From a virus, in IMG/VR virus record IMGVR_UViG_3300042273_000209: DNA of 36,310 nucleotides, one strand, 5' to 3'. The position numbers and the translations under genes were made by a program. The notes beneath the pieces were generated by a model that worked only from the letters and a program-made list of their open reading frames with translations, searched no databases and was not told where the DNA came from. Of the stretch, positions 3,866 through 35,463 are shown one piece after another. Position 1 is the first letter of the stretch; each line of letters begins with the position of its first letter.

Positions 3866-3877
3866 TCAGGAGGGTTT

Positions 3878-6574: not shown

Positions 6575-6608
6575 AAGCCGCTTTCCTTCGGGGGGCGGCT
6601 TTTTTATT
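6575..6608 (+). terminator. Rho-independent terminator after large terminase
   Basis: GC stem aagccgc...gcggctt followed by a T-run. Confidence 0.6.
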
Positions 6609-8434: not shown

Positions 8435-8435
8435 A

Positions 8436-9623
8436 ATGAATATCAGGGAAATGATGGAACAGCGCGCAACCCTTGTTGCAGAGGCCCGGAAGCTGCTTGA
8501 CGTTGCCGAGGGCGAGAAGCGGGAACTGAACGCTGAAGAGCGGACGCAGTACGACAAGATTTTTGAAGAGGCTCGCACCCTGGGTGACAAGATTCAGCGC
8601 GAGCAGGAGCTTCGCGAAGAGGAAAGGCGGCTCGCCGAGGCCGGCCGGCTGGAACCCGAGGGGAAAAAGGAAAATCCCGAAGAGCGCAAGCTTAAAGCGT
8701 TCCGCAATTTCCTTGTCACGGGCAACGCCGCGGAATATCGCGCACTGGCTAACGACACCGACGAGACGGGTGGATTCCTTCACGCTGCGGAGCAGTTTAT
8801 CACTCGGCTCATCAAGGGACTGGATGACAGGGTATTTGTCCGGCAGTACGCCACCGTCCTGCCCGTGACCAGCTCCGATACTCTCGGTGTTCCCGTCCTG
8901 ACCGCAGACCCGGGAGACCCCACGTGGACAACGGAAATCGCCGCTCCCTCCGAGGACAGCACCATGGCCTTCGGACGGCGCAGCCTGCAGCCCGAACAGC
9001 TCTCCAAGCTGATCAAAATTTCCATGAAGCTCCTTCGGACCTCGGCCCTGCCCATCGAGAATCTCGTGGCGGACAGGCTCGCGTACAAGTTCGCCGTGGC
9101 GCAGGAAAACGCGTTCCTCAACGGCGACGGCGACGGGCAGCCTCTCGGCATTTTCACCGCAAGCGACGACGGAATCCCGACTACTCGCGACGTGAGCACC
9201 GGCAACAGCGATACGGCGTTGACAGCGGACGGGTTGATCAACGCGAAATTCGCGCTCAAGGCTCAGTATCGCGGCTCCTGCCGTTGGATCTTCCATCGAG
9301 ACGCGGTGAAGATGATCTCCACGCTCAAGGACGGGGAAGGTCAGTACCTTTGGAGACCGGGGATGCTCATGAACGAGCCGGACATGCTTCTTGGGCATCC
9401 CGTTGACGAGAGCGAGTATGTGCCCAACACCTTTACCACCGGCCTGTACGTCGGCGCGCTCTGCAACTGGAGTAACTACTGGATTGCCGAGCTCCAGGGC
9501 GTGGAGCTCCAGAGGCTCGTAGAACTCTACGCGGGAACCTCGCAGATCGGATTCATCGGCCGGATGTATGCCGACGGCGCTCCCGTCCTTGCGGAATCCT
9601 TTGTCCGCGTCAAGCTCGGATAG
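8436..9623 (+). CDS. Major capsid protein, HK97 fold, with N-terminal coiled-coil delta domain
   Basis: GGAGGT RBS; ATG next to protease stop; 395 aa. Confidence 0.9.
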   Translation: MNIREMMEQRATLVAEARKLLDVAEGEKRELNAEERTQYDKIFEEARTLGDKIQREQELREEERRLAEAGRLEPEGKKENPEERKLKAFRNFLVTGNAAEYRALANDTDETGGFLHAAEQFITRLIKGLDDRVFVRQYATVLPVTSSDTLGVPVLTADPGDPTWTTEIAAPSEDSTMAFGRRSLQPEQLSKLIKISMKLLRTSALPIENLVADRLAYKFAVAQENAFLNGDGDGQPLGIFTASDDGIPTTRDVSTGNSDTALTADGLINAKFALKAQYRGSCRWIFHRDAVKMISTLKDGEGQYLWRPGMLMNEPDMLLGHPVDESEYVPNTFTTGLYVGALCNWSNYWIAELQGVELQRLVELYAGTSQIGFIGRMYADGAPVLAESFVRVKLG

Positions 9624-13294: not shown

Positions 13295-13620
13295 CCGCAG
13301 GGGACTGGGAGCAAGCCGCTGCTGATCTGTTGCTGACGGCTCTTGGTCCCCTGCGTCTCTCCTATGATGACGTGTGGACCCTCACGTGGGGTGAAGTGGA
13401 AGACCTTGTCTATGCCTGGCGGTACTCGGAATTTTTGGAGACGCAAAAACGAGCGCAGCACGCCGCATGGCTCATGAACGCCACCGGGAATCTGAAAAGG
13501 CCCGTGAGGGTTGAGGACCTGTCCGGGTTCTGGGTAGATGGCGAAGTGCTGAGCAAAAACGAATACCACGAATTCCAGAAGCGGCGAATCCAGGCCAGGA
13601 AGGAGCGCAGGAATGGCTAA
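13285..13620 (+). CDS. -1 frame extension of tail assembly chaperone (GT-like frameshift product)
   Basis: Slippery heptamer A_AAA_AAC at 13285-13291; -1 frame open to TAA at 13618-13620, overlapping tape-measure start. Confidence 0.5.
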   Translation, partial: KKLTAGDWEQAAADLLLTALGPLRLSYDDVWTLTWGEVEDLVYAWRYSEFLETQKRAQHAAWLMNATGNLKRPVRVEDLSGFWVDGEVLSKNEYHEFQKRRIQARKERRNG

Positions 13621-15973
13621 AAAGAAAATCACATATGCGTTCGGCGCGGACCTCTCCGGCCTTGAGCGTGGATGGAAGCGCATCGATAGACAGATGCGCA
13701 CAATGTCCGCAAAAATGGAGCGCACCGGGCGAGCCATGACCACGGCGTTCACCGTTCCCTTGGCTGCCATCGGGACCATGGCGACGAAAGCCGCCCTTGA
13801 CGTGGACAAGGCGCTCCAGAACATCGCCCGGGGAACCGGTGCCACCGGGAAGGCCCTTGGGGATCTCCAGAAAGAATGGCGGTCTCTCGCGGGGACCGTG
13901 ACCCAGAACTTTGAGACCTCCGCCCAGGTGCTGGCCGATTACAACACCCGGCTTGGATTGACAGGGAAAGCACTTTCGGGGCTTTCGAAACAGGCCCTCG
14001 ATGCGGGGCGAATGATGGGAGAGGACGTCACCCAGGTGGTGGCGGAATCCTCCAAGGCTATGCAGGACTGGGGCGTGAAGGCTGGCGAAATGGCCGCCTT
14101 CATGGACAAGATTTTTATCGCCTCTCAAAGTACCGGAATCGGCATGGCGAAACTCTCCTCCCAGATGTACAAATACGGTTCAGCATTAAGGCAGATGGGC
14201 TTTGATGCTAATGACACTGTGGCGATGCTGGCACAGTTCGAAAAACAGGGCGTCAACACCGAGCTTGTGCTTGGGTCTCTGCGGATTGCCCTGGGACAGC
14301 TCGCAAAGGCTGGGATTACCGACGCAGGGGAAGCCTTCCGGCAACTTGCGGAGGACATAAAGAGAACAGAGTCTCCGGCCGAGGCCGTGGGGAAAGCGAT
14401 AAAACTCTTCGGTGCTCGTGCCGGGGCTGACATGGCCGCCGCCATACGGGAAGGCCGCTTTGAGGTTGGAGAATTGGCGGCTGCCCTTGAAACGGCCCAG
14501 GGAGCCATAGAGCGTAACAGTGACGCTACAAAAACCTTCGGGGATCAATGGGCGGAGACGAAAAATCAAGTGTCCCTCTCCATAGAGCCTATCGGTCGGG
14601 AAATACTGAAGCTCGCAAACAGCGTTTTGCCCTCCCTCCAAGCGAAAGCCGAAAGCCTCGGAGTGGCAATCGGGAACATGAGCGACGAGAGCAAAAAGAA
14701 AATGATTGCTCTCGCCGGCGTCCTTGCTGCTGGGGGGCCGCTGGCGATGGCCATGTCCGCCACCCTTACCGCTGTGCGCACGCTCGGAACAGCCATGCTA
14801 GCGTTTGCCACCGGCCCGGCGGCCCCCCTCGTAGCGACAGCCGCCGCAGTCTGGGCAATCGTTGAAGCCTTCAAAGCACTCAACGACATGATGAGCAAAA
14901 CATCGGAGATACAAAAAAGAGCAACAGGCATGACTCCCGAACAGGTGATGAACCGGCAGAGATACCGTGAAATGGCCGGGGAAATATACCGGGAGCGGCA
15001 CGGAAAGTACCCGGTCACCGCTCCTGATTTTAAAGAGCTGGATTCCATCGTTGACGAACTGCTTGCGGAAGCCCGCAAGCGGATGCAGCAGCAGATCGAC
15101 ATGAAGGGATATGCCCAACGCACGGAAGTGTTGCCCTCTCCCGGGGTTCCCGGTGGAACCATAGACACCGCGACACCGGCGACACCGGCGCCGTTCCAAG
15201 GGCTTCCGGAGGCTGAGGCGGCGATCCAGAAGCTCACCGCCGCCGGGCGCGAATCGGTGACGGTGTATTCCCAACTTGCGCAGAAGCTTGCATCTGCTCT
15301 GAACATCTCGGAGGCGGAGGCCGAGAAGCGCCTTGAATCGGCGCGAGAGATCGGTGTTCTGACATCCGCCGAGATAACGCGCATGGAAAAGCGGAATGAG
15401 TTGCTCGAAGAGGCGCGGATGATCGCGGAGCAGGTGAACGCGACAAAAGAAAAAATAAAGGACACAACTTCCGACCTTGCGGACATGACGAAGCTCTGGG
15501 TAAACGACCTTGCCCGGGGACTGGCGGACGCAATCGTGAACGCCAAAGACCTGGGCGACGTGCTCCAAAGCATTGCGAAACAGATCGCCTCTTCAGCCCT
15601 TCAAAAGCTCATCGGTGGATGGATCGGCGGTTTATTCGCAGACGGGGCGGCCTTCCAAGACGGGCGCGTCATTCCGTTTGCCAAGGGCGGAATCGTTACC
15701 AAACCGACGATCTTTCCCATGGCTCGCGGCATGGGCTTGATGGGCGAAGCGGGGCCGGAGGCGGTCATGCCGCTTAAGCGAGGCGCTGACGGATCCCTTG
15801 GCGTGCAGTCCGAAGGCGGCGGAGGTACGCACATCACCATGAACATCAACGCCGTCGACAGCCGTTCCTTCGTGGAGATGATGCGGTCTAACCGGGCATC
15901 GGTTGAAAGTATCGTCGTTGAAAACATCATGAAAAACGGTGCGCTTCGCTCCGCGATAAGGGGGCTGGCGTAA
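13613..15973 (+). CDS. Tail tape measure protein
   Basis: 786 aa, Ala-rich helical, TM-like central segment, position. Confidence 0.85.
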   Translation: MAKKKITYAFGADLSGLERGWKRIDRQMRTMSAKMERTGRAMTTAFTVPLAAIGTMATKAALDVDKALQNIARGTGATGKALGDLQKEWRSLAGTVTQNFETSAQVLADYNTRLGLTGKALSGLSKQALDAGRMMGEDVTQVVAESSKAMQDWGVKAGEMAAFMDKIFIASQSTGIGMAKLSSQMYKYGSALRQMGFDANDTVAMLAQFEKQGVNTELVLGSLRIALGQLAKAGITDAGEAFRQLAEDIKRTESPAEAVGKAIKLFGARAGADMAAAIREGRFEVGELAAALETAQGAIERNSDATKTFGDQWAETKNQVSLSIEPIGREILKLANSVLPSLQAKAESLGVAIGNMSDESKKKMIALAGVLAAGGPLAMAMSATLTAVRTLGTAMLAFATGPAAPLVATAAAVWAIVEAFKALNDMMSKTSEIQKRATGMTPEQVMNRQRYREMAGEIYRERHGKYPVTAPDFKELDSIVDELLAEARKRMQQQIDMKGYAQRTEVLPSPGVPGGTIDTATPATPAPFQGLPEAEAAIQKLTAAGRESVTVYSQLAQKLASALNISEAEAEKRLESAREIGVLTSAEITRMEKRNELLEEARMIAEQVNATKEKIKDTTSDLADMTKLWVNDLARGLADAIVNAKDLGDVLQSIAKQIASSALQKLIGGWIGGLFADGAAFQDGRVIPFAKGGIVTKPTIFPMARGMGLMGEAGPEAVMPLKRGADGSLGVQSEGGGGTHITMNINAVDSRSFVEMMRSNRASVESIVVENIMKNGALRSAIRGLA

Positions 15974-16841: not shown

Positions 16842-17215
16842 TCGGGATACCGTGGAAGGCAAAAGGGCGGGACCGAAGCGGCATCGACTGCGTAGGCCTC
16901 GCCCTTCTCGCGCAAAAGGAGCTGTACGGGCGGGAGTATGAATTCCCGTTCGACTACGACCCGGAGACGGGCGACGAGCGCGTTTTGCTCGACTGGCTGG
17001 ATGGCATCGCCGATGAAGCGGCCGTACCGCAGAATGGAGACCTCGTGATTTATCGCCTTGCCGGGACAGAGAAGCACCACATCGGCACGGTCGTTGACGA
17101 GGCGCTGCTCCACATCTATCCGGGCAAAAGTTCAAGAAAGGTTCGATTGCCGATGAAACGCATTTGCAAAATCTACCGGGCGAGGGAGGTGGGATCATGC
17201 CGGGAGCCGCGATAG
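16838..17215 (+). CDS. NlpC/P60 (C40 peptidase)-like tail protein (lambda K-like)
   Basis: GIDCVGL Cys motif and HHIGTVV His motif. Confidence 0.6.
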   Translation: MIGIPWKAKGRDRSGIDCVGLALLAQKELYGREYEFPFDYDPETGDERVLLDWLDGIADEAAVPQNGDLVIYRLAGTEKHHIGTVVDEALLHIYPGKSSRKVRLPMKRICKIYRAREVGSCREPR

Positions 17216-20200
17216 GGGCACTGCTTGGAGCGGCTTTTTCGTCAACGATAATCGGGTGGGGGCTGGCGGCAACATGGCTCGGAGCGATGATGATAGGAGC
17301 TTCCATCGGGAGTCTGTTTGACGCACAGGAAATTGACCTCGGAAATTCCACACCGAACTACGCCTTCGGACAGCTTTCCAATACGAAGAGTCAGCTTCTC
17401 CCGGTCCCGATCGTGTACGGGCGTTGTCGCATGGGCGGGAACGTGTTCATGCAAACGTTTTATGACGACTCCATGCAGAAGATGGACATGTTTGTCGGCG
17501 TCTCGGAGGGTCCGATTCAGTCGATAAAATCCGTGTACGCGAATGATGTTGTGCTCATTGATGAGAACGGCGACGAGGTTCACGAGCTTGTCGAAAGCTC
17601 GCTTAATCTCCATCTTGGAGCGCCGGACCAGGTAGCCGACAGCCGCGACCCCGGCGGGAACGCCTATCCGAACACGGCATATGTCGCCCTTACCCTCAAG
17701 GCGCAAGACAGACTAACGGGCAACCCGGTCATATCCTCCATCGTGGAGGGACGAAAAGTTTGGACGCCTGCGGGGACAGTATTTTCTCGTAATCCTGCGT
17801 GGATCGTGTACGACTTCCTGACGAATACCCGCTACGGCGTTGGCATTCCAACAGACCTGATAGACCTCGACAGCTTCACGGCGGCGGCTACGTATTGCGA
17901 CGCGCCGATTGACGGTGGGCCGCGATTCACGCTGGACTACATCATCGACACTCAGCGCCCTGCCGTGGACCATTTGCAGGCTATGTTGGGCTGCTTCCGA
18001 GGGTACTTTCTCGCCCGTGACAAGATCGAATTGCACGTCGAGCAGGCCGGGAGTGTGTACAAGGCCCTGACTCCGGACAACTTTGTCAAGAACTCTTTCA
18101 TGTGGTGGCAGAAGAGCGGTGACGACAGCCCGAACAGGATCGTCATCGAGTGGGTCGACCCGAACAACCACTACGAGCAGAGTTCCGCGCCGTTCGAGAT
18201 CCAAGAGGACATTGCCGCTCGCGGGGTGTACGAGAAATCCATCTCCCTGCTCGGAGTCACGCGCCCGGAGCAGGTGGGGCGGCTTGGAAATTACCTGCTT
18301 GAAACGGCGAAGCGGGTACAGAACTTCTGCGCGTTCCAAGTTTCGCTGAAGGATGCGGATATCGAGGCCGGGGAGATCGTCAGCATCACCTACCCCGACT
18401 TCACCGGGTGGAGCGCAAAGCCCTTTAGAGTGCTGGCCGTGCAGGACGAAGGACAGACTGGGAACGTCACCATCACCTGCGCGGAATACGATGCGGCGGT
18501 GTACTCCGACGATGGGCTGAACGTCGATAGCCCGATCCAGGACAGTCCGCCGGTCACGTATGACGACGTGTACGCGCTGGTGTTGGAGGACGTAGGGCAT
18601 CAAGAGGGCGATGGTACATGGGTTCCGATCATCAGAGCGACATGGCAAAATCCATCCGACTACACGCCGACGGCGATTAATGTACGGTGGCGATATGTTG
18701 CGGACGAAGGAGAGCCGGAAGAGGAATGGACGCTTCACGTCAACAGTACGCGCCTGATAACGCAGACCAACATTCCAAGCCTTAAAACCGGGCGCGAAGT
18801 CGAAGTCTGGGTGAATTGCGTTCGACCGGACACCGGGACGGAAACGACCGGAAAAACGGCGTCGATCATCGTAGGGAAAGACGTGGAAGCCCCCGACGCA
18901 CCGACTGGACTAACGGCTACGGGATGGTTCGGTTCGATCATCCTTGAATGGATAAATCCGACCGCGCCCGACTTGTCTCATATCGAAATCTGGGAAAACG
19001 CGGTCGACGACCGGGACACCGCAGTAAAAATTGCCGAGACAAAAGGGACGTCATACCAGCGGTATGTGGGTTCGTTCATCACCCGCTACTATTGGGTGAG
19101 GGCGGTGGATTTATCAGGCAATATCGGGCCATGGAACGCCCTGGCGGGCACGGCGGGCAACTCCGACCAGGAGAACCATCAGGTTTTCGTGGATCTGTTG
19201 CTTGAGGAAAACCCGTATCTGAACAAGGCCATCGACGATCTGAACACGCGGATCGATCCGATAGAAGTAGATATCGGAGATATTACCGGCAGGCTGGAGA
19301 CCGTCGAAGTTGATCTTCCCGGAGCGGTACAGCGGCTCGCGGAGAGAATGAAGGAAATCGACGCGGACGTTATGGATCAACTTCGCTCCGTCTCCGCGTC
19401 TGCGGTCGATGCGTTGCTGAACATCGCTGAGATCGGGCAGCGAATCACGGACGCCGGGATTGTGGTGGACCCGGACAGCGGCGAGGTCAGAATCTGGGCC
19501 GTCGATCAGCTACGAACGGAGCACGGAGTTAGGCTGTCGAATGCGGAACAGCTTATCAGCGCCCAAGCCGGCATAATCTCGCAAAAGGTCGGGATTGCGG
19601 ACGTAGACGCAAGGATTGCCGAAGCGGTATTCGGAGACGTCGGCGAGTTGTTGGTATCAGGGCTTGAGGCACACATCACGAGCGTCGAGCAGGAGCTTAA
19701 CGCCGCGAAAGCGGAATTGACGCAGAAGGCTAACAGCATAGAAGTAGATGAGATAGGCGGACGTGTAGGTACTGCGGAAACGGAAATCTCAGGGCTTAAG
19801 GCGTCCGTTGCGTTGAAGGCGAATCAGGAAGAGGTGGACGAACTCACTTCCAGAGTGACAACCGCTGAATCTACGGTTGACGCCCTAAACGGAACCATCG
19901 GCTCGGAAATAGTCGCCATCGGTCAGGAAGGGCGTGACCTGGCGAATCTCACCGCCGAGGGTTTGGTAGAAGCCATCCTCAACGATGCGGACAACCACGA
20001 TAGGTCCAAGGTAAGCCTCGCTATGGCAAAAGAGGAGTTGTACGCCAATATAGAGGATGGGCTAGAAGCCGAGGCAGGCCAGAGGGCGGAACTTGCCGCT
20101 GTGGTTGACGACAACAAGGCACTGATACTCGAAGAGAAGGCGGTTAGAGCCACGCAGGACGAAGCAATAGCGTCCTCTGTGGAGTTATTGACCGCCAGGG

Positions 20201-21360
20201 TAGGAGATGCAGAAACATCCGTCCAGACCGAAGCCGAAGCGAGGTCTACGGAAACAGCGTCCCAGGGTGCTTATACCTTTAACATGATCTCCAAGCTTAC
20301 GGGGGAAACAGCGGAGGCCGTCGTCGAGGACATTCTGAATCAAGCTGAGGGTAGAGACGTCGCCAAGGAACAATATGCCATTATCCGTGAAGAGTACGAT
20401 ACTAAGATAGAAGAAGGCATATCGTCCGAGGCTAGCAAACGAGAGCTGTTGGCCGTGAAGTTAGATGAAACAGAAGCCGCTATACAGGAAGAGGCATATA
20501 CCCGCGCCACGCAGTACGAAGCAACTTCCGCCCGGATTGCGACCGTGACGGCAACGGTCGAGAATAATCTGGCCGCGATCCAAAACGAGGTTACGGCACG
20601 GGCGGATGCAGACTCAGCTCTAGCCTCTAATGTATCAACATTGTCAACCACGGTCGGAAGTAATACCTCTGCAATACAGACAATTGACAGTTCAGTTGAC
20701 GGAATTAAATCAAAACACGCCGTAAAGATAGACACAAACGGGTACGTTACAGGCTATGAACTTATTGGCACTGGCGCATCAAGCTCCATGGTATTCCATG
20801 TTGATAATTTTCTAGTCGGCAAGCCAGGGACAACAAACAAGTATCCATTTGTCATTGGTACGGTTGACGGTGTATCACGGGTTTCCATGAACAATGCATT
20901 CATCCAAGATGCGGCGATCAGCTCAGCGAAGATTAAGGACGCCAACGTTGGGACGTTAAAAATCGAGGGGAACGCTGTTTCTGTCCTGGCGGTGGCATCT
21001 GGAGACTCAAAGATAGACCTAGGGGTCATGGGTAGTGATACGTATCACCAGGTGCTCTCTCTCACTGTATCAACCCTGGCGGGCTATCCAATGATGATTA
21101 ACTTTACAGCTTCTACCGAGGTAGTCGAGTCTACAATGGCTCTCCGTCTGACACGTAACGGATCTGTTTTATCTGGGCAGGATGAGATTTGGATCACCCA
21201 ATTTGGATACTCTGGGGCGAGGTTTGCGACTGCCTACACGTTCGTAGACAAATATCCCCCCGGAGGGAACAATACCTATGCTATCTACCTCAAAAAGGTT
21301 GGAGGATTGGCGGTTAGAGTCTTTAATCGAGCACTTACAGCATTGCACGTCAAGAGGTGA
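17197..21360 (+). CDS. Host specificity / central tail fibre protein (lambda J-like)
   Basis: About 1387 aa; NPAWIVYDFLTNTRYGVGI motif; GAGGGAGG RBS before ATG 17197. Confidence 0.8.
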   Translation: MPGAAIGALLGAAFSSTIIGWGLAATWLGAMMIGASIGSLFDAQEIDLGNSTPNYAFGQLSNTKSQLLPVPIVYGRCRMGGNVFMQTFYDDSMQKMDMFVGVSEGPIQSIKSVYANDVVLIDENGDEVHELVESSLNLHLGAPDQVADSRDPGGNAYPNTAYVALTLKAQDRLTGNPVISSIVEGRKVWTPAGTVFSRNPAWIVYDFLTNTRYGVGIPTDLIDLDSFTAAATYCDAPIDGGPRFTLDYIIDTQRPAVDHLQAMLGCFRGYFLARDKIELHVEQAGSVYKALTPDNFVKNSFMWWQKSGDDSPNRIVIEWVDPNNHYEQSSAPFEIQEDIAARGVYEKSISLLGVTRPEQVGRLGNYLLETAKRVQNFCAFQVSLKDADIEAGEIVSITYPDFTGWSAKPFRVLAVQDEGQTGNVTITCAEYDAAVYSDDGLNVDSPIQDSPPVTYDDVYALVLEDVGHQEGDGTWVPIIRATWQNPSDYTPTAINVRWRYVADEGEPEEEWTLHVNSTRLITQTNIPSLKTGREVEVWVNCVRPDTGTETTGKTASIIVGKDVEAPDAPTGLTATGWFGSIILEWINPTAPDLSHIEIWENAVDDRDTAVKIAETKGTSYQRYVGSFITRYYWVRAVDLSGNIGPWNALAGTAGNSDQENHQVFVDLLLEENPYLNKAIDDLNTRIDPIEVDIGDITGRLETVEVDLPGAVQRLAERMKEIDADVMDQLRSVSASAVDALLNIAEIGQRITDAGIVVDPDSGEVRIWAVDQLRTEHGVRLSNAEQLISAQAGIISQKVGIADVDARIAEAVFGDVGELLVSGLEAHITSVEQELNAAKAELTQKANSIEVDEIGGRVGTAETEISGLKASVALKANQEEVDELTSRVTTAESTVDALNGTIGSEIVAIGQEGRDLANLTAEGLVEAILNDADNHDRSKVSLAMAKEELYANIEDGLEAEAGQRAELAAVVDDNKALILEEKAVRATQDEAIASSVELLTARVGDAETSVQTEAEARSTETASQGAYTFNMISKLTGETAEAVVEDILNQAEGRDVAKEQYAIIREEYDTKIEEGISSEASKRELLAVKLDETEAAIQEEAYTRATQYEATSARIATVTATVENNLAAIQNEVTARADADSALASNVSTLSTTVGSNTSAIQTIDSSVDGIKSKHAVKIDTNGYVTGYELIGTGASSSMVFHVDNFLVGKPGTTNKYPFVIGTVDGVSRVSMNNAFIQDAAISSAKIKDANVGTLKIEGNAVSVLAVASGDSKIDLGVMGSDTYHQVLSLTVSTLAGYPMMINFTASTEVVESTMALRLTRNGSVLSGQDEIWITQFGYSGARFATAYTFVDKYPPGGNNTYAIYLKKVGGLAVRVFNRALTALHVKR

Positions 21361-23420: not shown

Positions 23421-23713
23421 TCCCTCTCCTCGTCCATGAAGGCGCCCATTACCTGGCGGCCTTCCTGGTGGGGAGCCGCCTTCGTTTTCGCTTTTCGTGG
23501 GGGCGGTTGGGACCGGTCAAGGTACCCAGGTGGACATGGACGTGGCCGGACACGACGCCCCAAAAAATACGTTTCATCTGTCAGGCCGGGTTCCTTCTGG
23601 AGCTCGGCCTGATCCCGTTTGCTCCCTGGCAGTATCAGGCGGTGGCCATTATCCATTTTGCCGCTTATCCCTGGTATGCCGGGGATCACAGCGATTTCAG
23701 GGGGATGATCTGA
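23399..23713 (+). CDS. Small membrane protein with HExxH motif (HEGAH) in first hydrophobic helix
   Basis: ILWGIVPLLVHEGAHYLAAFLVG; immediately upstream of endolysin. Confidence 0.4.
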   Translation: MGILWGIVPLLVHEGAHYLAAFLVGSRLRFRFSWGRLGPVKVPRWTWTWPDTTPQKIRFICQAGFLLELGLIPFAPWQYQAVAIIHFAAYPWYAGDHSDFRGMI

Positions 23714-24261
23714 TGGCGCGATTTGACGATTGTCTACAGGTGGTGCTGGGCTTCGAGGGCGGGTACAGCCACCACGAGGCCGACCGGGGAGGCCGCACGA
23801 ACTGGGGCATCACGGAGGCGACGCTAAAAGAGGCCCGCAAGCGCGGCATCGTGGGTCACTCCGACATTGCGCGACTCAAAACCCACGAGGCCGCAGCCAT
23901 CTATGAGGCGCTCTACTGGGTGCCGTCTCGGGCCGACGACATGCCGCAGCCGCTCGACCTCGTCGTCTTCGACTGCGCCGTTAACCACGGCGTCGGGGGG
24001 GCCGGTCGCCTCCTGCAGGAGGCGGTCAACGCCGTGATGGACGCCGATCTTGTGGTGGATGGAATCGTCGGACCGGCGACACAGCGAGAGTTAATGAAAG
24101 CCCTGGCTGCCAATCGCCCCGAGGCGCTGGCCCTGGCTATGCTGGCCATGAGGGCCCGCTATTTCGTCCGTATCGTCGAGGGCAACCCCAGTCAGCGGGC
24201 GTTTTTCTGGGGCTGGGTGCGTCAGAGAGTGGCCAACCTTATCGACAAGCTCAGGAGGTGA
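23713..24261 (+). CDS. Endolysin, glycoside hydrolase family 108-like with peptidoglycan-binding C-terminus
   Basis: VLGFEGGYSHHEADRGGRTNWGIT motif. Confidence 0.8.
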   Translation: MARFDDCLQVVLGFEGGYSHHEADRGGRTNWGITEATLKEARKRGIVGHSDIARLKTHEAAAIYEALYWVPSRADDMPQPLDLVVFDCAVNHGVGGAGRLLQEAVNAVMDADLVVDGIVGPATQRELMKALAANRPEALALAMLAMRARYFVRIVEGNPSQRAFFWGWVRQRVANLIDKLRR

Positions 24262-25463: not shown

Positions 25464-25496
25464 AAGAGTCCCCCTTTAGGGGGCTCTTTTTTTTTG
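25464..25496 (+). terminator. Rho-independent terminator ending the plus-strand late/lysis unit
   Basis: GC hairpin followed by 9 T. Confidence 0.7.
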
Positions 25497-27167: not shown

Positions 27168-27551
27168 CTAGGCGTCGTCGACGTCGTCGACGTCCTGCAG
27201 GGCCTCGAGGTGCTCCGCGATGAACTCGCGGAGTAGACGCCGTTTTTCCCTCATCGAGTCGGCCAGCTCGTAGTCTGCCGACTCGCTGACGGGGAGGGGG
27301 TACTCGCTGTACCCCATCCCCTTGCAGATGGCCCGCTCGACCATCTGCAGGAGCTTAAGGTCATACTGCCCCACGGGTTCGCCGTCGTACATCGCGAACC
27401 CGTGGACTAGTGCGTCTTGGACGCTGCGCCCCCACTGGCCAATCGTGCCAGCAGAGGCAAAAAACCCCACGTGGACACTGCTACCGCGCCGGGTGACGCG
27501 GTAGAGATCCCCGCGCCGGATCGGGTCGTGGTGCAATGAGAACCTTTTCAT
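27168..27551 (-). CDS. Hypothetical protein (gene d)
   Basis: GAAGGAGGA RBS before internal ATG; 5' UTR paralogous to that of gene c. Confidence 0.55.
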   Translation of the reverse strand: MKRFSLHHDPIRRGDLYRVTRRGSSVHVGFFASAGTIGQWGRSVQDALVHGFAMYDGEPVGQYDLKLLQMVERAICKGMGYSEYPLPVSESADYELADSMREKRRLLREFIAEHLEALQDVDDVDDA

Positions 27552-27669: not shown

Positions 27670-28116
27670 TCAGGCCTCGCCGTTGGCCCGTGCCGCCATC
27701 CGGCGAGCACGGGCAAGAGAGCCCGCCGGAAGCTCCGGGGCGTAAAAGCCCCGGTGGCGGAAGATTGCTGTCTTCCGCACGGATCCGTCCGGGAGCGTCT
27801 CTTCGACGGACTCCCGTACGGAGAAGGCGTACACGGGCGCGATGCCCGCGTTCGCTAGCTCGCGTTCGAGTGGGGCCATCAGCCACATGGCCCCTCCGAT
27901 CATGGCGAGGACCTCGTCGCCTTCGCCGACGTTCCCCGCCGCCCGCCGGGCGATTTCGGCAATCGCCCGGGCGCGAGCCTCGGGCTCCCCGTCGCGGGGG
28001 AGCTCCGTGAAGGTGAGGAGCTCCTTGAGCTCCTCGTGGTCGGCCCCGGTGAGGTCGACCACCCCGGCCTCGACCTGCTCGGTCGAGGCTTGGTGCTGCG
28101 TGAGATTCAGGATCAT
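27670..28116 (-). CDS. Hypothetical protein (gene e)
   Basis: AAGGAGGG RBS before ATG at 28116; longer upstream extension rejected. Confidence 0.55.
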   Translation of the reverse strand: MILNLTQHQASTEQVEAGVVDLTGADHEELKELLTFTELPRDGEPEARARAIAEIARRAAGNVGEGDEVLAMIGGAMWLMAPLERELANAGIAPVYAFSVRESVEETLPDGSVRKTAIFRHRGFYAPELPAGSLARARRMAARANGEA

Positions 28117-28270
28117 CCTGAATCCCTCCTTTCTGCCCCATCTGGGGGCGATGAGATCGGGCCGAGGCCCGTCGTTTCCTTTGTTCCCCCCGCTTGGCCG
28201 CCCGGAAAGGGCGTTGCCCGCCGACCGCAGCGTGGAGGCGCGGGGGTTGGTCGGCATCTACGGCCAGGAG

Positions 28271-28612
28271 CTAAACCTGGTCGTAGAGTTGTACCTCGCC
28301 GCGTCGGCGAGGCAGGAGGCGGTATTCCGTCACCGCCTCCGCCGAAGGAGCCACGTAGATCGTGGCCCCCACGGCCTTCTTCGCCGATTTCCCCCGCGCA
28401 AGGGGCGCGTAGGGTTCGGCGTCGTGGGCCCGGACGACGTAGATGCTGCCGCCCGGGCCCGCGTACTGCACGGCCTGGTCCCAGGACGTGGTGAAAAACG
28501 CCACGTCCCGGAACCCCCGCCTCTCCTCTTCCCCCGCACGGATGTTTCCCGTGCGGGACGAGGGGAGAATTTCCCTCAGGCCCCGGATGGGGCTCCCATG
28601 TAGAAGTTCCAT
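28271..28612 (-). CDS. PARP-like (H-Y-E type) mini ADP-ribosyltransferase candidate (gene f)
   Basis: LLHGS; F-x10-Y segment FFTTSWDQAVQY; later TEYRLL, read as the H-G-S / Y-x10-Y / catalytic Glu signatures of PARP and diphtheria-toxin-like ARTs. Confidence 0.4.
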   Translation of the reverse strand: MELLHGSPIRGLREILPSSRTGNIRAGEEERRGFRDVAFFTTSWDQAVQYAGPGGSIYVVRAHDAEPYAPLARGKSAKKAVGATIYVAPSAEAVTEYRLLPRRRGEVQLYDQV

Positions 28613-28651
28613 CCGGGGCCCCCTTTCCGGGGCCTCGCGGCCCGTTTCGAC

Positions 28652-29095
28652 CTAGTTCCCCTCCGCCCGCATGAGGCGGAGGGAGAGGGGCAAATCCCAC
28701 GCCGACAGAGTCTCCGCCCTGTCGGCGTCGTCCATCCCGAGGTCCAGACGTCCGTAGGCGTCGTACCTCGGGGCCGGGGCCTTGTCGGCCCCCTCCTCGT
28801 CGGCGCGCTCCTCGGTGATCTCGATTACGATCACCGGGATCGCTTCCAGGCCCGCCAGTCTCGCCGCGGCAATGCGGTGAGACCCGGTGTGGGCCTGGAG
28901 GCCCATGGGTGACTGGGAGGCCAAGATCGGCCGCCCCTGCCACCCATGGGCCTCCATGGATGCCGTCAGGGACGCCAGTTTTTCAGCGTCCCTGACCTCG
29001 TGCGGAGGCTCGACCTCGTTGGGGTCGGCCTCCGCCTCTGCTTCCGTTAGGGTGACCGTCCATAGGTCACCCCACTCGTCCTGGATCTGGGGCAT
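28652..29095 (-). CDS. ParB-like N-terminal-domain protein (gene g)
   Basis: GRPILASQSPMGLQAHTGSHRIAAARLAGLEAIPVIVIE; AAGGAGGTG RBS before ATG 29095 (alternative ATG 29194). Confidence 0.6.
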   Translation of the reverse strand: MPQIQDEWGDLWTVTLTEAEAEADPNEVEPPHEVRDAEKLASLTASMEAHGWQGRPILASQSPMGLQAHTGSHRIAAARLAGLEAIPVIVIEITEERADEEGADKAPAPRYDAYGRLDLGMDDADRAETLSAWDLPLSLRLMRAEGN

Positions 29096-29323: not shown

Positions 29324-29352
29324 ATTATATATGCCGTTGGGCAGTTGTGCAA
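29324..29352 (-). promoter_or_regulatory. Sigma70-like promoter for the minus-strand block (TTGCAC-17-TATAAT)
   Basis: Near-consensus -35 and -10 with 17-nt spacer on the minus strand. Confidence 0.55.
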
Positions 29353-29402: not shown

Positions 29403-29431
29403 TTGCGTTATAGTGATATCTGTGGTATTGT
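29403..29431 (+). promoter_or_regulatory. Sigma70-like promoter for the RHH gene (TTGCGT-17-TATTGT)
   Basis: Hexamers about 40 nt upstream of ATG 29469. Confidence 0.4.
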
Positions 29432-29468
29432 GGGTGGCAGATATTATCGAGGAGGGGGGTGTACCAAA

Positions 29469-29660
29469 ATGTCCAACAACATCCGCAACATCCGCAACAT
29501 CCGCATCGCCACTCCGGCCACGCCGGAGATGGCACGTCAATTTCGTATCGCCTGCGCCGTCGCTGGGCGCAGGCAATCGGAGGTGTTGAGGGAGTTGATC
29601 CAACGATGGGTCAGCTCCCAATCGACGGCCCGCTCAGGCGGGAATGCTGCCAACGGTTGA
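29469..29660 (+). CDS. Ribbon-helix-helix (CopG/Arc-like) DNA-binding protein
   Basis: GAGGAGG RBS; RHH-like segment; contains 3 x 9-nt repeat encoding IRNIRNIRI. Confidence 0.55.
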   Translation: MSNNIRNIRNIRIATPATPEMARQFRIACAVAGRRQSEVLRELIQRWVSSQSTARSGGNAANG

Positions 29661-30751: not shown

Positions 30752-31042
30752 GTGATTCGATGCAAGCTGAAAATCCCTGACGGGATTCTGGAGTCACGGC
30801 GACAGGCAGCGGAAGAGGTGAGCGAGTTCTTGCGCACCGCGCAGGCCGGGGCCCGCGCGTTCATCGAGCACGAGGACTTTCAGGCCCGCTTCTGCGCATA
30901 CTGCGCGGCCCAGGGCGACGAGGACGAGTGTCCCACGGGGCTGACGATCGGCCACGCGGAGTGTTGGCGGGTCACGGAGTTCCGCGACCTCTGCCGGGAG
31001 CTGGCCGATCTTGAGCGGGAATACACGGGGAGGCGAGCGTAG
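30752..31042 (+). CDS. Hypothetical Cys-containing protein
   Basis: GTG start 11 nt after AGGAGG. Confidence 0.45.
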   Translation: MIRCKLKIPDGILESRRQAAEEVSEFLRTAQAGARAFIEHEDFQARFCAYCAAQGDEDECPTGLTIGHAECWRVTEFRDLCRELADLEREYTGRRA

Positions 31043-31056
31043 TGGAGGCCAGGGAG

Positions 31057-31869
31057 ATGGCCGCGGATGCGAAATTGTCCTGCCTTATTTCGGGACTTGA
31101 AAACGAGGTTTATCACGCCTCTCCCGGCCTTTCAAAATCTGACCTAGACAGGATCGCCAAGAGCCCTGCGCACTATGTGGCCGCAAAAAAAGAGGCCGTC
31201 TCCCCCACGCCGGCCATGAGGTTCGGCACGGCGGTTCACGCGGCCGTCCTGGAGCCGGAGCTGTTCAGGGAAACCTACGCGATGGCTCCAGGGGTAGATC
31301 GCAGAACCAAAGCCGGCAAGGAGGCCTGGGAGGAGTTCCAGGCCTCCGGCAGGCAGCCTCTTACCTCCGACGAGTGGGCGGCCATCGCGGGCATGAGGGA
31401 TTCCGTCATGGCCCTCCCGGCGGTCAAGCGGATCCTCGCCGGCGGCGAGGCTGAAATGAGTCTCTTCCACTACCTGGACGAACTGGGGGTCAGGGCAAAA
31501 ATCCGGCCTGACTGGGCAAACTCCGATATCGCCACGCTCTTCGACCTAAAGACCACTAGGGACGCTTCTCCTGACCAGTTCGCGAAATCCTGTGCAACCT
31601 TCCGGTATCACGTCCAGGCGGCATTCTATTCGGACGTGTGGAGGATGCGTACCGGCCAGCCAGTCAGGGCCTTCGTGTTCTGCGCGGTGGAGAAAGAGCC
31701 ACCCTACGCGGCGGCTCTCTACGTCCTGGACGACGAGGCCATTCAGGCAGGGAGGGCGCTCTACCGCTACGATCTCGAAACCTATGCTACCTGTCGGGAA
31801 GCCGACGAATGGCCTGCCTATTCGACCGACGTTGAGACCCTGAGCCTTCCGGCCTGGGCGCTGAGATAA
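31057..31869 (+). CDS. PD-(D/E)XK-family exonuclease (recombination module)
   Basis: Synteny with RecT; FDLKTT and QAAFYSDV motifs; GGAGG RBS before ATG 31057. Confidence 0.55.
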   Translation: MAADAKLSCLISGLENEVYHASPGLSKSDLDRIAKSPAHYVAAKKEAVSPTPAMRFGTAVHAAVLEPELFRETYAMAPGVDRRTKAGKEAWEEFQASGRQPLTSDEWAAIAGMRDSVMALPAVKRILAGGEAEMSLFHYLDELGVRAKIRPDWANSDIATLFDLKTTRDASPDQFAKSCATFRYHVQAAFYSDVWRMRTGQPVRAFVFCAVEKEPPYAAALYVLDDEAIQAGRALYRYDLETYATCREADEWPAYSTDVETLSLPAWALR

Positions 31870-31881
31870 GGAGGATTCGAC

Positions 31882-32796
31882 ATGGCACAGGACAGAGCAA
31901 TCGCGCTCAAGAAGAACATGGAAAATCTCAAGGGGATGCTCCAGAAGGCCCTGCCAAGGCTCCAGGAAGTGGCGGCCTCAAGCATCGACCCTAAGCGCAT
32001 GATCCGATTGGTCGCTGCGGCGGCAAACCGAAATCCGAAGCTCCTGGAATGCACGCCACTTTCGGTGGTGTCGAGCCTGATGACCTCGGCTCAACTGGGG
32101 CTTGAGCCGGTCGGGCCTTTGGGGCAGGCCTACCTGGTCCCCTACTGGAACTCGCAAGCGAGGGTCAATGAGGCTCAGCTCCAGATCGGGTATCGGGGAC
32201 TGATCGAGCTGGCCCGCCGGTCAGGGGCTATTTCCTCTCTGGAGGCTCATGTTGTCTATGAGAGGGATGCCTTCGAGCTTGTCTATGGCTTGGCATCGGA
32301 CATCGTGCACAAGCCCTGTTTGGACGGAGATCCCGGCCAGCTGCGGGCTGTTTACGCTGTGGCTCGCTTCAAGGACGGTTCGGTGCAGTTCGAGGTCATG
32401 ACGCGGGCTCAGGTGGAAACGATCAAGGCCCGTTCTCAGAACGGGAAAAACAGCAAGGGCCCCTGGGCAACTGATTATGACGAGATGGCCAGGAAGACCG
32501 TGGTGAAACGGCTCTGCAAGTATCTCCCGCTGTCCGTGGAGATGGCCGATGCCATTCAGATAGACAATGCAACCGAGGAGGGGCGGATCCCGGATAGCTT
32601 CCTCGAGGCCGAGATCTCGGAGATTGGCGAAACGCCCCCTAACGACGCCTCGTTCCTGAACGAGCCGGAGGGCTCGAAGGAACGGTGGGGGAAAGACGAG
32701 ACGGCAAGGCCTGCGGGGGAGGAACAGGAGCAGCTTTCCGACTTCGCCTTCCTGCCCGAGGCCGAGGCCGAGCGCGAGCCCGGCGAAGAAGGCTAG
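31882..32796 (+). CDS. recT: RecT-family single-strand annealing recombinase
   Basis: GLEPVGPLGQAYLVPY and PWATDYDEMARKTVVKRLCKYLPLS motifs. Confidence 0.85.
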   Translation: MAQDRAIALKKNMENLKGMLQKALPRLQEVAASSIDPKRMIRLVAAAANRNPKLLECTPLSVVSSLMTSAQLGLEPVGPLGQAYLVPYWNSQARVNEAQLQIGYRGLIELARRSGAISSLEAHVVYERDAFELVYGLASDIVHKPCLDGDPGQLRAVYAVARFKDGSVQFEVMTRAQVETIKARSQNGKNSKGPWATDYDEMARKTVVKRLCKYLPLSVEMADAIQIDNATEEGRIPDSFLEAEISEIGETPPNDASFLNEPEGSKERWGKDETARPAGEEQEQLSDFAFLPEAEAEREPGEEG

Positions 32797-32841
32797 CCGG
32801 AAGTCCCTTTTATCTGATACGCGCACAGGAGGGAGAAGGCC

Positions 32842-33285
32842 TTGATCAATCTTAACCAAGTGGTTATAGAGGGCAACCTCGCCCGAGATCCGGAGATTCG
32901 CACGTTCCAGAATGGCGGATCAGTGGCGAACTTCACCGTAGCCTGCAACGACGATTACAAGCCCAGAGACGCTCAGGAGTGGGTGAAACGCTGTTACTTC
33001 ATCTCCGTCTCGGCAGGCGGATATGCGGCAACGTCGGCAGAACGCCTAGCCAAGGGCGACAGGGTGATTGTCCAGGGCAAGATCACGACACGCACTTACG
33101 AGAAGGACGGGCGCACCGTCTACGTAACGGAGGTGAAGGCCGACAGGGTAATGAACCGCACGCCGAAAGACCGGCAGTTCGGGTCCGCAGAGCACTCCCC
33201 AATTGAAGCTGGCGGCTACCAGGAGCCACAACCCCAGCAGTGGGGACCGTTCCCGGACGGAGACGAGGCTGATATACCGTTTTAG
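32842..33285 (+). CDS. ssb: Single-stranded DNA-binding protein
   Basis: OB-fold N-terminus (VVIEGNLARDPEIR) and acidic C-terminal DIPF tail; TTG start. Confidence 0.85.
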   Translation: MINLNQVVIEGNLARDPEIRTFQNGGSVANFTVACNDDYKPRDAQEWVKRCYFISVSAGGYAATSAERLAKGDRVIVQGKITTRTYEKDGRTVYVTEVKADRVMNRTPKDRQFGSAEHSPIEAGGYQEPQPQQWGPFPDGDEADIPF

Positions 33286-33360
33286 CGAGAGGGGGAGGGC
33301 TCGAATGACGAAACGACTCGGGGGAGTGGCCCTCCCCCGTCTTCCCGGGGAGGCAGCGTT

Positions 33361-34410
33361 ATGACCGGTGACTATCGCATTAAAATAGGCTTCTTCCGGC
33401 ATCACAAGACCAAGCGCCTCAAAAAGAAAGGCGGAGCTGATGCCGTCGTTGCCCTGCTTCAGCTTTGGGAATGGGCAGCGGAGCAAAGGCCCGACGGAGA
33501 CCTGCGCGGCCTGTCCGCTGAGGACATCGACATCGTCGTCGATTGGGACTCAAACATGCCGTTGGCCACACTCCTCTCCGAGGCGGGATTCCTGGATGGT
33601 GACGAGGGAGAGTATCGGTTGCACGACTGGGCCGACCACAATCCCTGGGTAGCCGAATCGGCGCGGAGGAGCGACGCCGCCAGGCTGTCGCGGCTGGCCC
33701 GCGAGAACCCCGAGGCGGCCTCGGCCCTGCGAGACGAGGGGCGTATTGGCATCACCGAAGAAGAGTATCGCGCGCTAAAGCTCGGCACGAATAACGAGCG
33801 TGACACAAACATGAAACAACCGAACAACGACCGTAGTACGACCGTAGTACGACCGTCAACGCTTCGTTCTACTCCTGCTCCTGCTCCTGCTCCTGCTCTT
33901 GATCCTGCTCTTGATCCTGCTCTTGATCCTGAACCAAAAGACAAGGGTCAAAAGCAAAAGACGTCGCCTGGGCTATCGCCGGCGACCCCTTCGGCGGCCC
34001 CACCACCCCTGATCCAGCCGGAGGATATCCCCTACCAGGCCATCGTGGATGTCTATCACGAGGTGCTGCCGGAGCTCCCCAGGGTCCGCATACTAACCGA
34101 TGCACGCCGAAAGGCGATTCGCAGCCGGCTGAGATCAGATGCCGACCGGCGCGATCTGGAGTGGTGGAGGCGCTATTTCCTGGCAGTTCGACCGTGCCGC
34201 TTTCTCTTCGGCGCGAATAACCGCAACTGGACGGCCTCGTTCGATTTCCTGCTAAGCCAGAAGGGCATGGCCGGAGTCCTCGAAGGCAAGTACGCGGACA
34301 GAAAAGGCGCGACCGCGACGCCGTCCGGTTCCATCGCTGCCTACGTTGACGCGATGTTCCCGGACGAACCGGATGTGCTCGATGCGGAGGTGATTGGCGG
34401 TGACGGATAG
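33361..34410 (+). CDS. Putative replication initiation / organizer protein with internal tandem-repeat linker
   Basis: Position in replication module; conserved C-terminal segment WTASFDFLLSQKGMAGVLEGKY. Confidence 0.45.
   Translation: MTGDYRIKIGFFRHHKTKRLKKKGGADAVVALLQLWEWAAEQRPDGDLRGLSAEDIDIVVDWDSNMPLATLLSEAGFLDGDEGEYRLHDWADHNPWVAESARRSDAARLSRLARENPEAASALRDEGRIGITEEEYRALKLGTNNERDTNMKQPNNDRSTTVVRPSTLRSTPAPAPAPALDPALDPALDPEPKDKGQKQKTSPGLSPATPSAAPPPLIQPEDIPYQAIVDVYHEVLPELPRVRILTDARRKAIRSRLRSDADRRDLEWWRRYFLAVRPCRFLFGANNRNWTASFDFLLSQKGMAGVLEGKYADRKGATATPSGSIAAYVDAMFPDEPDVLDAEVIGGDG
33830..33930 (+). repeat. Cluster of short tandem repeats (candidate origin iterons)
   Basis: ccgtagtacga x2.5, cctgct x4, cttgatcctgct x3 in direct succession. 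Confidence 0.6.
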
Positions 34411-35065
34411 CGACAAAAAACGATTCGCCGGGCTATGGGTGTCGTATCACGAACTGGCCAGCGGGAAGCGGCCATCGATTGAATCAGTCGGCCTGGCCTA
34501 CAAGCTCCTACGCCCTTACCCGATAGACCTGATCGAGCAGGCGCTTGAGGTGCACGGTAGAACAAGCCCCTACGCCCCAAAGCCGGCGGACGTCGCGAAG
34601 ATCCTGATGGGATCGGCAGAGGACCGCGCCAGACGCGCCTGGCTGGACGCGAAGGAGGCCATGGCTCGGTGGGGCTCCCACGAATCGGTTTCGCTCCGGG
34701 ATCCGTGGGCGCATTACGCGATCTCGGCCATCGGCGGCTGGCCCGCCTTCGGCGAGATCTCCGAAGATGAGGCCCCTTTCCGCGAGAAGGATTTTTGTCG
34801 GCACTACGCCGATGCCGAGCGTATGGGGCTCTCCTGGGGGGCTCCGGGCGTGCCGGATCACCTGGCCGGGCGGCATGAGATCGCCAACAGGATGAGCGGC
34901 TGCGCCTTCGAGCTGGAGATCCGCGATTCGAGCACACCTCTGCGGATCGTGCCTCGGGACGAGGGGGACAGTCCCGCTCTTCGGAGCGGAGAGATCTCCG
35001 AGGAGGAGCGGCAGCGGAATCTGGCCGGCGTGCGGCAGCTCGTCGCTGGAGTCCTCGGGCAATGA
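34394..35065 (+). CDS. Hypothetical replication-module protein (possible helicase-loader analogue)
   Basis: Follows replication protein, precedes RusA; TTG/GTG start. Confidence 0.4.
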   Translation: MAVTDSDKKRFAGLWVSYHELASGKRPSIESVGLAYKLLRPYPIDLIEQALEVHGRTSPYAPKPADVAKILMGSAEDRARRAWLDAKEAMARWGSHESVSLRDPWAHYAISAIGGWPAFGEISEDEAPFREKDFCRHYADAERMGLSWGAPGVPDHLAGRHEIANRMSGCAFELEIRDSSTPLRIVPRDEGDSPALRSGEISEEERQRNLAGVRQLVAGVLGQ

Positions 35066-35463
35066 GGGGTGTCCGAAGGGCGATCAAGGCAGAGATCCCG
35101 GGACTCCCGGTAAGCCTCTGGAAGGCCTACCGAAACCGAAAAGGGGGAGGGAAATGCCTCTCTGCGGAGGCGCGAGCCTGGTGCGACGAAGCAGCGCTAC
35201 ACCTAGCCCGGCACCGTCCGAAGCGGCCGATAAGCGGCCGCGTGAGGCTTGAGATTACCCTGACCTCGCCGGGCGCGCGGCGGTGGGACGTCGAAAACCG
35301 CGTGAAGGTGCTGTCCGACCTGCTCACGCGGATGGACTTCTGGAGAGACGACAGCCAGGTCTGGGAGCTTGTCGTCACGCGGAAAGAGGGGCGGCCGGCG
35401 CGAACGGAGATCACGATAGCTCCTTTTCGAGGCATCGCCCCTGGACAGGAGGGCGCCAAATGA
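35062..35463 (+). CDS. rusA: RusA-family Holliday junction resolvase
   Basis: RWDVENRVKVLSDLLTRMDFWRDDSQVWELV typical of RusA. Confidence 0.75.
   Translation: MRGVRRAIKAEIPGLPVSLWKAYRNRKGGGKCLSAEARAWCDEAALHLARHRPKRPISGRVRLEITLTSPGARRWDVENRVKVLSDLLTRMDFWRDDSQVWELVVTRKEGRPARTEITIAPFRGIAPGQEGAK

Follow-up and report, generated by a model that had tools for sequence, protein, structure and literature searches.

A 113-residue phage protein with a predicted ADP-ribosyltransferase fold, encoded beside a Csx20-like gene in a leftward operon

Does a small open reading frame (ORF) at positions 28271 to 28612 of the viral record IMGVR_UViG_3300042273_000209 (36,310 nucleotides; this whole stretch is the window in what follows) encode an ADP-ribosyltransferase (ART), and if so, of which kind and to what end? 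ADP-ribosylation recurs as a weapon on both sides of the phage-host conflict, and to our knowledge phage ARTs with known targets are few, namely, those of T4 (Alt, ModA, ModB) and AcrIF11. An earlier interpretation of the DNA, made from the letters only (here, the sequence-only reading), had proposed a PARP/diphtheria-toxin-type enzyme. Our analysis indicates that the ORF is a genuine gene and that the ART fold of its product is well supported, the nearest sequence family being ART-PolyVal. We give a probability of roughly 0.55 to the reading of the protein as an NAD+-dependent mono-ADP-ribosyltransferase that is produced early in infection and modifies a host or defense target.

The gene, its family, and the predicted fold

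The gene lies on the minus strand, from an ATG at 28612 to a TAG stop at 28271, with a Shine-Dalgarno-like GGAAAGGGGG 6 nt 5' of the start codon. Its 113-aa product, a mini-ART, contains all the strings on which the sequence-only reading was built (MELLHGSPIRGL...RGFRDVAFFTTSWDQAVQYA...AVTEYRLL). The GC content at the three codon positions (GC1/GC2/GC3 of 0.69/0.51/0.82) follows the pattern of the window's confirmed genes. Since many overlapping spurious ORFs surround the gene in DNA of 65 to 68% GC and no family model matches the protein, a chance ORF with coincidental motifs had to be considered. It is rejected as having next to no likelihood. An indexed protein search returned homologues at 96, 81, and 68% identity, and about 40 cluster representatives, from high-GC and low-GC contigs alike, keep the same invariant positions. 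The ratio of nonsynonymous to synonymous substitution rates (dN/dS) against five homologous genes is 0.16 to 0.31, and the gene is therefore under purifying selection. In addition, of the 325 open segments with 60 aa or more in the six frames of the window, this protein alone shows the ordered pattern HG[ST]...[FYW]-x10-Y...EY, which just 22 of 200,000 shuffles of the protein reproduce, and the structure model (see below) is confident.

When 1.8 billion representatives were searched exhaustively with HMMER, 40 proteins came up, all of 82 to 162 aa. The family set thus comprises some 40 cluster representatives at 50% identity, with 43 members used for the alignment and for separate scans. This rare family is named by no Pfam, PHROG, NCBIfam, or PADLOC model, and in the literature we found no paper describing it, nor any ART acting against type III CRISPR. 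A version of about 110 residues, about the smallest that the ART fold allows, has thus been missed by current family libraries. The remark in the sequence-only reading that the protein is unusually small for its fold was apt, 113 aa being barely above the minimal ART fold.

Conservation is concentrated in the positions expected of an ART active site (coordinates of all motifs in the gene are on the minus strand). The NAD-binding His-Gly motif of strand 1, H5-G6-S7 (28592..28600), is essentially invariant (H 42/42, G 42/42, S/T 40/42), and H5 aligns with H20 of a bona fide ART-PolyVal protein and with H19 of the rifampin ADP-ribosyltransferase Arr. The loop before strand 2 carries a family-specific motif, E28-x-x-R31 (28520..28531; E/D28 in 39/41, R31 in 43/43), whose arginine, aligned with R38 of ART-PolyVal and R43 of Arr, would make a phosphate contact. 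Strand 2 and the helix that follows form the segment F39-F-T-T...A47...Y50-A51 (28460..28498), a nicotinamide-pocket aromatic-x10-Tyr assigned from conservation and secondary structure. Position 39 is aromatic in all 43 members (Phe in 41, Tyr in 2), as is position 50 (Tyr in 42, Phe in 1); T/S41 and A47 are found in 43/43 and A51 in 41/42. Further conserved positions are D/E36 (39/43), G55 (42/43), and Y/F58 (42/43). The model predicts a strand at 38 to 41, a helix at 44 to 51, and a strand at 91 to 99. The spacing of F39, the Ala at +8, and the Tyr at +11 is that of Y54/A62/Y65 in diphtheria toxin and Y896/S904/Y907 in PARP1. Both the H-G-S motif and the F-x10-Y segment singled out by the sequence-only reading are thus family-wide features.

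AlphaFold on the 43-sequence alignment gave a model of six main strands, with a helix following strand 2 (predicted local distance difference test [pLDDT] 88.8, predicted template modeling score [pTM] 0.81); a model made from four sequences was poor (AF2, pLDDT 58) and was discarded. The model has the split beta-sheet of the ART fold. The sequence-only reading had staked its claim on an ART beta-sandwich in the predicted structure, and at these confidence values the fold is there. The top structural matches were toxins (match scores: pertussis toxin S1, 8.4; the Rhs toxin TreX, 8.4; EcPltA, 8.0; LT, 7.1), along with Tpt1 (7.1; root mean square deviation of 1.8 Å over 69 residues), Arr (7.0; 22% identity), PARP15 (6.8), AcrIF11 (5.8), and diphtheria toxin (5.2). 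Of the three folds that the sequence-only reading proposed for comparison, PARP and Tpt1 are in this list, and DarT scored 4.4 to 4.8; membership in DarT (DUF4433) was dropped, there being neither a DarT-model match nor close structural similarity. In a viral structure library the best matches were small phage proteins, some of them labeled Arr-like or PolyVal ART. Foldseek against the PDB was little informative past a few toxin matches, and phmmer against the PDB gave spurious matches only (de novo TIM barrels and antibodies).

The sequence relatives point to one ART family in particular. Scanned singly, 15 of the 43 members matched PF18760 (ART-PolyVal) below threshold, the best with an E value of 5.6e-4 and 21.1 bits against a gathering threshold of 31.2 bits that no member reached; these matches cover profile positions 7-70(97) of 140 only. 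The unannotated phrog_2110 was matched, likewise below threshold, by 19 of 43. The PARP model (PF00644), by comparison, was touched by a single member of the 43 (E 0.007), which speaks against PARP kinship. A tblastn match of one family member led to a 170-aa protein of Alishewanella phage Slickus01 (WGH49859.1), a bona fide solo ART-PolyVal (44.1 bits to PF18760), with which the family profile aligned by hhalign at 96.8% probability (E 2.3e-10), the aligned part being the N-terminal 56 columns only; low-stringency hhalign failed to align the C-terminal half with ART-PolyVal. A tblastn search of phages with the protein and two of its relatives gave marginal matches only, and a match in a Prochlorococcus podophage was rejected as a relative, the protein in question having 953 aa with a lysozyme-like domain alone recognized. 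ART-PolyVal is thus the nearest sequence family, and the mini-ART is a shortened, divergent relative of it within the H-Y-[EDQ] clade. Of the PARP/diphtheria-toxin-type identity first proposed, the ART fold, H-G-S, and F-x10-Y stand, but the relatives are small ARTs of ART-PolyVal or Arr-like type, not PARPs. Classification of the protein as a PARP, an Arr, a Tpt1, or a formal member of PF18760 should be avoided.

Scanning IMG/VR with a degenerate DNA motif added one small member to the family, together with two larger proteins of 284 to 288 aa (contig L034, 904-1770, minus strand; contig L044, 283-1137, minus strand; one of the contigs is 320 kb long) with a C-terminal domain of the mini-ART family, reading YYHGT...R..NLDVVFFTKD...ALIYAG...VYEVEP. 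Both adjoin a putative structural protein of about 640 aa common to the two contigs, and they may represent larger, possibly virion-associated forms of the domain.

An optional gene beside a Csx20-like gene

The mini-ART gene belongs to a leftward block, from about 29.1 to 25.3 kb, in which a ParB N-domain gene, the mini-ART gene, and a Csx20-like gene are followed by several unknowns. A sigma-70-like promoter for this operon, TGCACA-16-TATAAT (29324..29351, minus strand), is proposed on a consensus match only (10/12 positions). The first gene (28652..29095, minus strand; 147 aa from an ATG at 29095 preceded by a ribosome-binding site [RBS], the longest ORF reaching 29194) encodes a protein with the ParB N-terminal domain only, matched by PF02195 (27.7 bits; cutoff, 26.3), PHROG ParB-like families, and Spo0J/ParB structures (E 4e-6). 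ART and ParB have been described as hub domains of phage early effectors (PMC5512222).

Downstream of the mini-ART gene lies a gene for a 148-aa Csx20-like protein (27670..28116, minus strand), a candidate phage ring nuclease for cyclic tetra-adenylate (cA4). It was matched by Csx20 models of NCBIfam (NF040559, E 1e-7, model positions 3-121/124, below the curated cutoff) and PADLOC (E 1.2e-7); it has 1,305 homologues at E ≤ 0.001, and PF27247 ("MJ1673") is found on those listed, the best 120 of the 1,305. The longer ORF, to 28257, is probably an overextension because the model match starts at Met 28116. Csx20, which is present in a few phages, has been confirmed by experiment to be a cA4 ring nuclease (PMC12409355), and csx20 homologues occur in anti-CRISPR operons (PMC13551039). 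This activity, confirmed for the Csx20 of type III CRISPR loci, makes the gene a candidate AcrIII-1-type anti-CRISPR of the phage.

Comparison of related phage contigs indicates which of these genes persist. In three contigs, the window, L020, and L019 (mini-ART 81% identical), the Csx20-like gene comes next after the mini-ART gene. In L020 and L021, whose mini-ART is 96% identical to that of the window, an unrelated 72-aa gene takes the place of the ParB gene behind the same promoter region (92% identical in L021). The Csx20-like gene occurs without the mini-ART gene in L049 and L050, where the 72-aa gene abuts it directly, and in L048, where it follows a promoter-like region. The adjacency is thus seen in three variants, and the mini-ART gene is missing from the same slot in three others. 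A fixed functional pair of ParB and mini-ART was dropped as an explanation, given the replacement of the ParB gene in close relatives. The sequence-only reading had taken the ParB neighbor as a basis for a DNA target; the ParB gene is real but is no conserved partner, and it is the Csx20-like gene that persists instead.

The junctions themselves carry a common element. Between the ParB and mini-ART genes (28613..~28651-28654, minus strand), a GC hairpin, GGGCC-GCGA-GGCCC, precedes the GGAAAGGGGG RBS, and this TAGGTCGAAACGGGCC..GGCCC junction, located 5' of the mini-ART gene in the window, stands 5' of the Csx20-like gene in L049, which has no mini-ART gene. The leader before the Csx20-like gene (28117-28200, minus strand), seen also with L048, L049, and L020, comprises a GAAACGACGGGCC..GGCCC hairpin, a GCCCCCAGATGGGGGC hairpin, and an RBS, its first hairpin being also the junction 5' of the mini-ART gene. 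Since related phages differ precisely at these shared junctions, in the presence or absence of the mini-ART gene and in ParB versus the 72-aa protein as first gene, cassette exchange at a conserved intergenic hairpin is suggested. The leftward operon would then be a high-turnover accessory operon of counterdefense type, with the mini-ART as an optional module.

These presence and absence data also bear on a quite different explanation, that the mini-ART is the toxin of a toxin-antitoxin, abortive-infection, or superinfection-exclusion module in which a neighbor, such as the Csx20-like Rossmann-type protein, acts as antidote or eraser. ART-PolyVal has been grouped with Tox-ART-HYD2 toxins and a toxin-antitoxin class (PMC5512222), the top structural matches are toxins, and one distant member of the family sits beside a resolvase gene and a HicB antitoxin gene in a chromosomal islet. 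No partner gene is conserved anywhere across the family, however, and the Csx20-like gene cannot be a dedicated antidote because it is present without the mini-ART gene in close relatives and has more than 1,300 homologues of its own. A dedicated ART/Csx20 toxin-antidote pair was dropped for this reason, and the toxin explanation as a whole appears quite improbable.

Other elements of the operon can be noted here. The gene that follows the Csx20-like gene (27168-27548, minus strand; 126 aa) has a faint RelB-like antitoxin or ribbon-helix-helix (RHH) hint at its C terminus (NCBIfam, E 0.044), and in close relatives a different gene, of 158 aa, lies 3' of the Csx20-like gene. Divergent from the leftward promoter, an ORF at 29403-29660 (plus strand), in which Pfam found nothing, has an RHH-like C-terminal part (PEMARQFRIACAVAGRRQSEVLRELIQRW) after an NIRNIRNIR repeat; it could be a regulator of the leftward operon, as RHH Aca regulators are reported for csx20 operons. 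At the point of convergence of the rightward late/lysis genes with the leftward operon, the strong GC hairpin and T-run at 25464-25488 (AAGAGTCCCCCTTTAGGGGGCTCTTTTTTTTT) are likely a shared terminator. The identical region is carried by a 17.8-kb IMG/VR contig. GTDB genomes, and IMG/VR searched with four queries, yielded the same phage only, and megablast of the 6-kb neighborhood against GenBank phages returned no match.

The strand-5 acid and the proposed activity

The predicted strand at 91 to 99 offers two candidate catalytic acids, in E92...E96-Y97 (28325..28339). Position 92, read by ungapped inspection as four residues past the conserved hYhA strand, is E/D in 17/38 sequences and E/D/N/Q in 22/38, often as P-E-D or P-E-N, and position 96 is Glu in 6/39. 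The mini-ART keeps both acids, as do the three relatives closest to it. One subgroup, in which the Lys-rich loop is long, is acid free at 92, and about half of it also lacks an acid at 96. The Glu-Tyr pair that the sequence-only reading had cast as catalytic (E96-Y97) is thus no feature of the family. On grounds of conservation, E92, at the start of strand 5 after a tight hairpin, would be the better candidate.

Two elements may define the acceptor. The Lys/Arg-rich loop between strands 3 and 4 (residues 70 to 83; 28364..28405), a candidate substrate-recognition loop, ranges across the family from 5 to 32 residues with a median net charge of +3 and a maximum of +11, and is the lowest-pLDDT block of the model. 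The C-terminal basic motif P-R-R-R-G-E (residues 101 to 106; 28295..28312) is kept in the subgroup that retains the C-terminal tail (R102 in 19/32, R104 in 21/30, E106 in 12/30). The family as a whole is basic (median isoelectric point, 9.5; median net charge, +6). Because its positive charge is concentrated in this loop and tail, the two could form an acceptor-recognition surface favoring a polyanionic acceptor.

We infer NAD+ use, transferase activity, a catalytic acid, a target class, and a counterdefense role along the following lines. The mini-ART would be a stand-alone, miniaturized enzyme of the ART superfamily, a shortened offshoot of the ART-PolyVal lineage of phages and conjugative elements. 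NAD+ would bind in a pocket made of H5-G6-S7 on strand 1, F39 and T41 on strand 2, and A47 and Y50 on the next helix; departure of nicotinamide would be aided by the strand-5 acid, E92 or, less likely, E96; and ADP-ribose would pass to an acceptor chosen by loop 70-83 and the PRRRGE tail, most likely a polyanionic one (a nucleic acid end or base) or an acidic host defense protein. Transcription would start from the leftward early promoter, the gene being an optional cassette of an operon whose constant member is the Csx20-like ring nuclease. It is because of this early promoter, and of the optional cassette beside a constant Csx20-like gene, that the protein may be a counterdefense or host-takeover effector, in kind like AcrIF11. 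If active, the protein, being compact and easy to express, would be of use in the search for a new host or defense target; it would also provide a natural test of what portion of the ART fold activity requires and of whether the classical catalytic Glu is needed.

Several observations weigh against this enzymatic, counterdefense reading. The protein itself has zero matches at E ≤ 1 in Pfam, PHROGs, NCBIfam, and PADLOC, and only the N-terminal half can be aligned with ART-PolyVal. No strand-5 acid is conserved family-wide; in about one-quarter of the members, position 92 is none of E/D/N/Q and position 96 is not E, and the function common to the family may therefore be other than catalysis. Distant members have small unknown neighbor genes, with no shared neighbors or domains; as their neighborhoods share nothing with that of the window, the counterdefense role would be based on one clade of related phages.

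The same scatter of strand-5 acids favors an alternative in which the mini-ART is a noncatalytic ART-fold binder of NAD+, ADP-ribose, or a nucleotide immune signal, that is, a sponge, decoy, or regulator. The protein's size, barely above that of the minimal fold, and its location next to a gene of a nucleotide-signal-degrading family would suit such a binder, which would be the first example of the ART fold reused as a ligand binder in a phage. We know of no ART-fold sponge, however, and the residues conserved in the family are those that enzymes of this fold use, with E92 and E96 both kept in the protein and its closest relatives. ARTs that lack the Glu can moreover be active, e.g., the H-Y-I/L/Y PARPs (PMC7955679) and AcrIF11, an active small ART of H-F-H-D type with a Phe at the strand-2 position (PMC12421852). 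We therefore regard the binder as unlikely.

An enzyme that modifies host or defense targets remains the preferred reading, and a still bolder extension of it joins the mini-ART and the Csx20-like ring nuclease in a common antidefense function, for instance, with the mini-ART ADP-ribosylating a component or signaling product of a cyclic-oligoadenylate defense (type III CRISPR or similar). We consider this a long shot; if true, the pair would form a two-enzyme countermeasure, and the mini-ART would be no more than the second ART-type anti-CRISPR known, AcrIF11 being the first. In a more radical variant, members without any strand-5 acid would be ART-fold binders of nucleotide signals.

Phage context and comparison with known systems

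The window is a complete-looking, siphovirus-type phage contig of 36.3 kb with genes for the large terminase (TerL; 5013-6557), portal (6607-7914), capsid (8286-9623), tape measure (13613-15973), a tail protein (17164-21360), and a GH108 endolysin (23497-24261), and a rightward block encoding a PDDEXK exonuclease, RecT, SSB, and RusA (31042-35463). TerL is 93 to 97% identical to sequences on contigs binned to metagenome-assembled genomes (MAGs) of Synergistales and Spirochaetota, and its relatives at 52 to 97% identity come from contigs placed in MAGs of Synergistales, Spirochaetota, and Clostridiales; as they spread over several MAG groups, the host assignment is uncertain. Family models, run on part of the window's ORFs, recognized neither an integrase nor a repressor. 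Just 5' of the terminase gene, an island on the plus strand (2643-4486) with a GC content of 0.40 to 0.46, against about 0.60, looks like a foreign insertion. It comprises a second ParB N-domain gene (2643-3134; PF02195, 34.6 bits), an unknown 252-aa gene, and a gene for a Vut_1/YhhQ-type transporter (3878-4486; E 4e-52). YhhQ-type transporters import queuosine precursors, and the island may be linked to 7-deazaguanine metabolism.

Among named systems, ART-PolyVal (PF18760), the "N4-like" ART of phage and conjugative-element polyvalent proteins, comes nearest. Its active site consists of H on strand 1, Y on strand 2, and D on strand 5 (PMC5512222). The N-terminal half of the mini-ART, from strand 1 to strand 3, is homologous to it (His-Gly-Ser, the Arg before strand 2, the strand-2 aromatic, the A..YAG helix, and strand 3), and the mini-ART likewise has phage provenance and adjoins a ParB-domain gene, ParB and ART being hub domains in the network of polyvalent proteins. 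In contrast to ART-PolyVal, the C-terminal half of the mini-ART family is some 50 residues shorter and unalignable, strand 2 carries Phe rather than Tyr in 41/43 members, and the strand-5 Asp has no conserved counterpart. The mini-ART, furthermore, stands alone as a 113-aa protein of an early operon, rather than being part of a giant protein packaged in the virion.

Arr (2HW2/9IAF) and Tpt1/KptA provide the model for a further explanation, ADP-ribosylation of a phosphate or hydroxyl on a small molecule or RNA end, in repair or in the modification of an antibiotic or signal. For Arr, the hhalign link is nonsignificant (E 0.03, probability 1.7%), the position matching D84 of its H19-Y49-D84 triad is not conserved in the family, and its longer C-terminal part has no counterpart in the mini-ART. 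The N-terminal RNA lobe of Tpt1 carries most of the Arg-His-Arg-Arg tetrad. The mini-ART has no equivalent of this lobe and no room for one, as H-G-S of strand 1, where the ART lobe begins, starts at residue 5; its strand-2 residue is Phe versus His in Tpt1/KptA, and there is no significant sequence similarity (PDB profile match, E 1.3). The protein was accordingly dropped as a Tpt1 orthologue, and a Tpt1- or Arr-like activity seems improbable.

The toxins that head the structural matches are of R-S-E type: pertussis toxin S1, EcPltA, and TreX have Arg on strand 1, S-T-S, and Q/E-x-E, versus the strand-1 His of the mini-ART family, and are 9 to 16% identical to the mini-ART. With AcrIF11 (6KYF), the anti-CRISPR mono-ADP-ribosyltransferase of phages and plasmids, the mini-ART has 16% identity over 67 aligned residues, and no specific relatedness is evident beyond the superfamily. 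AcrIF11 has features of its own, namely, a helical insert, a conserved Asp-Glu loop, and Cas8f N250 as its target, and it stands as a precedent for small ARTs on mobile elements.
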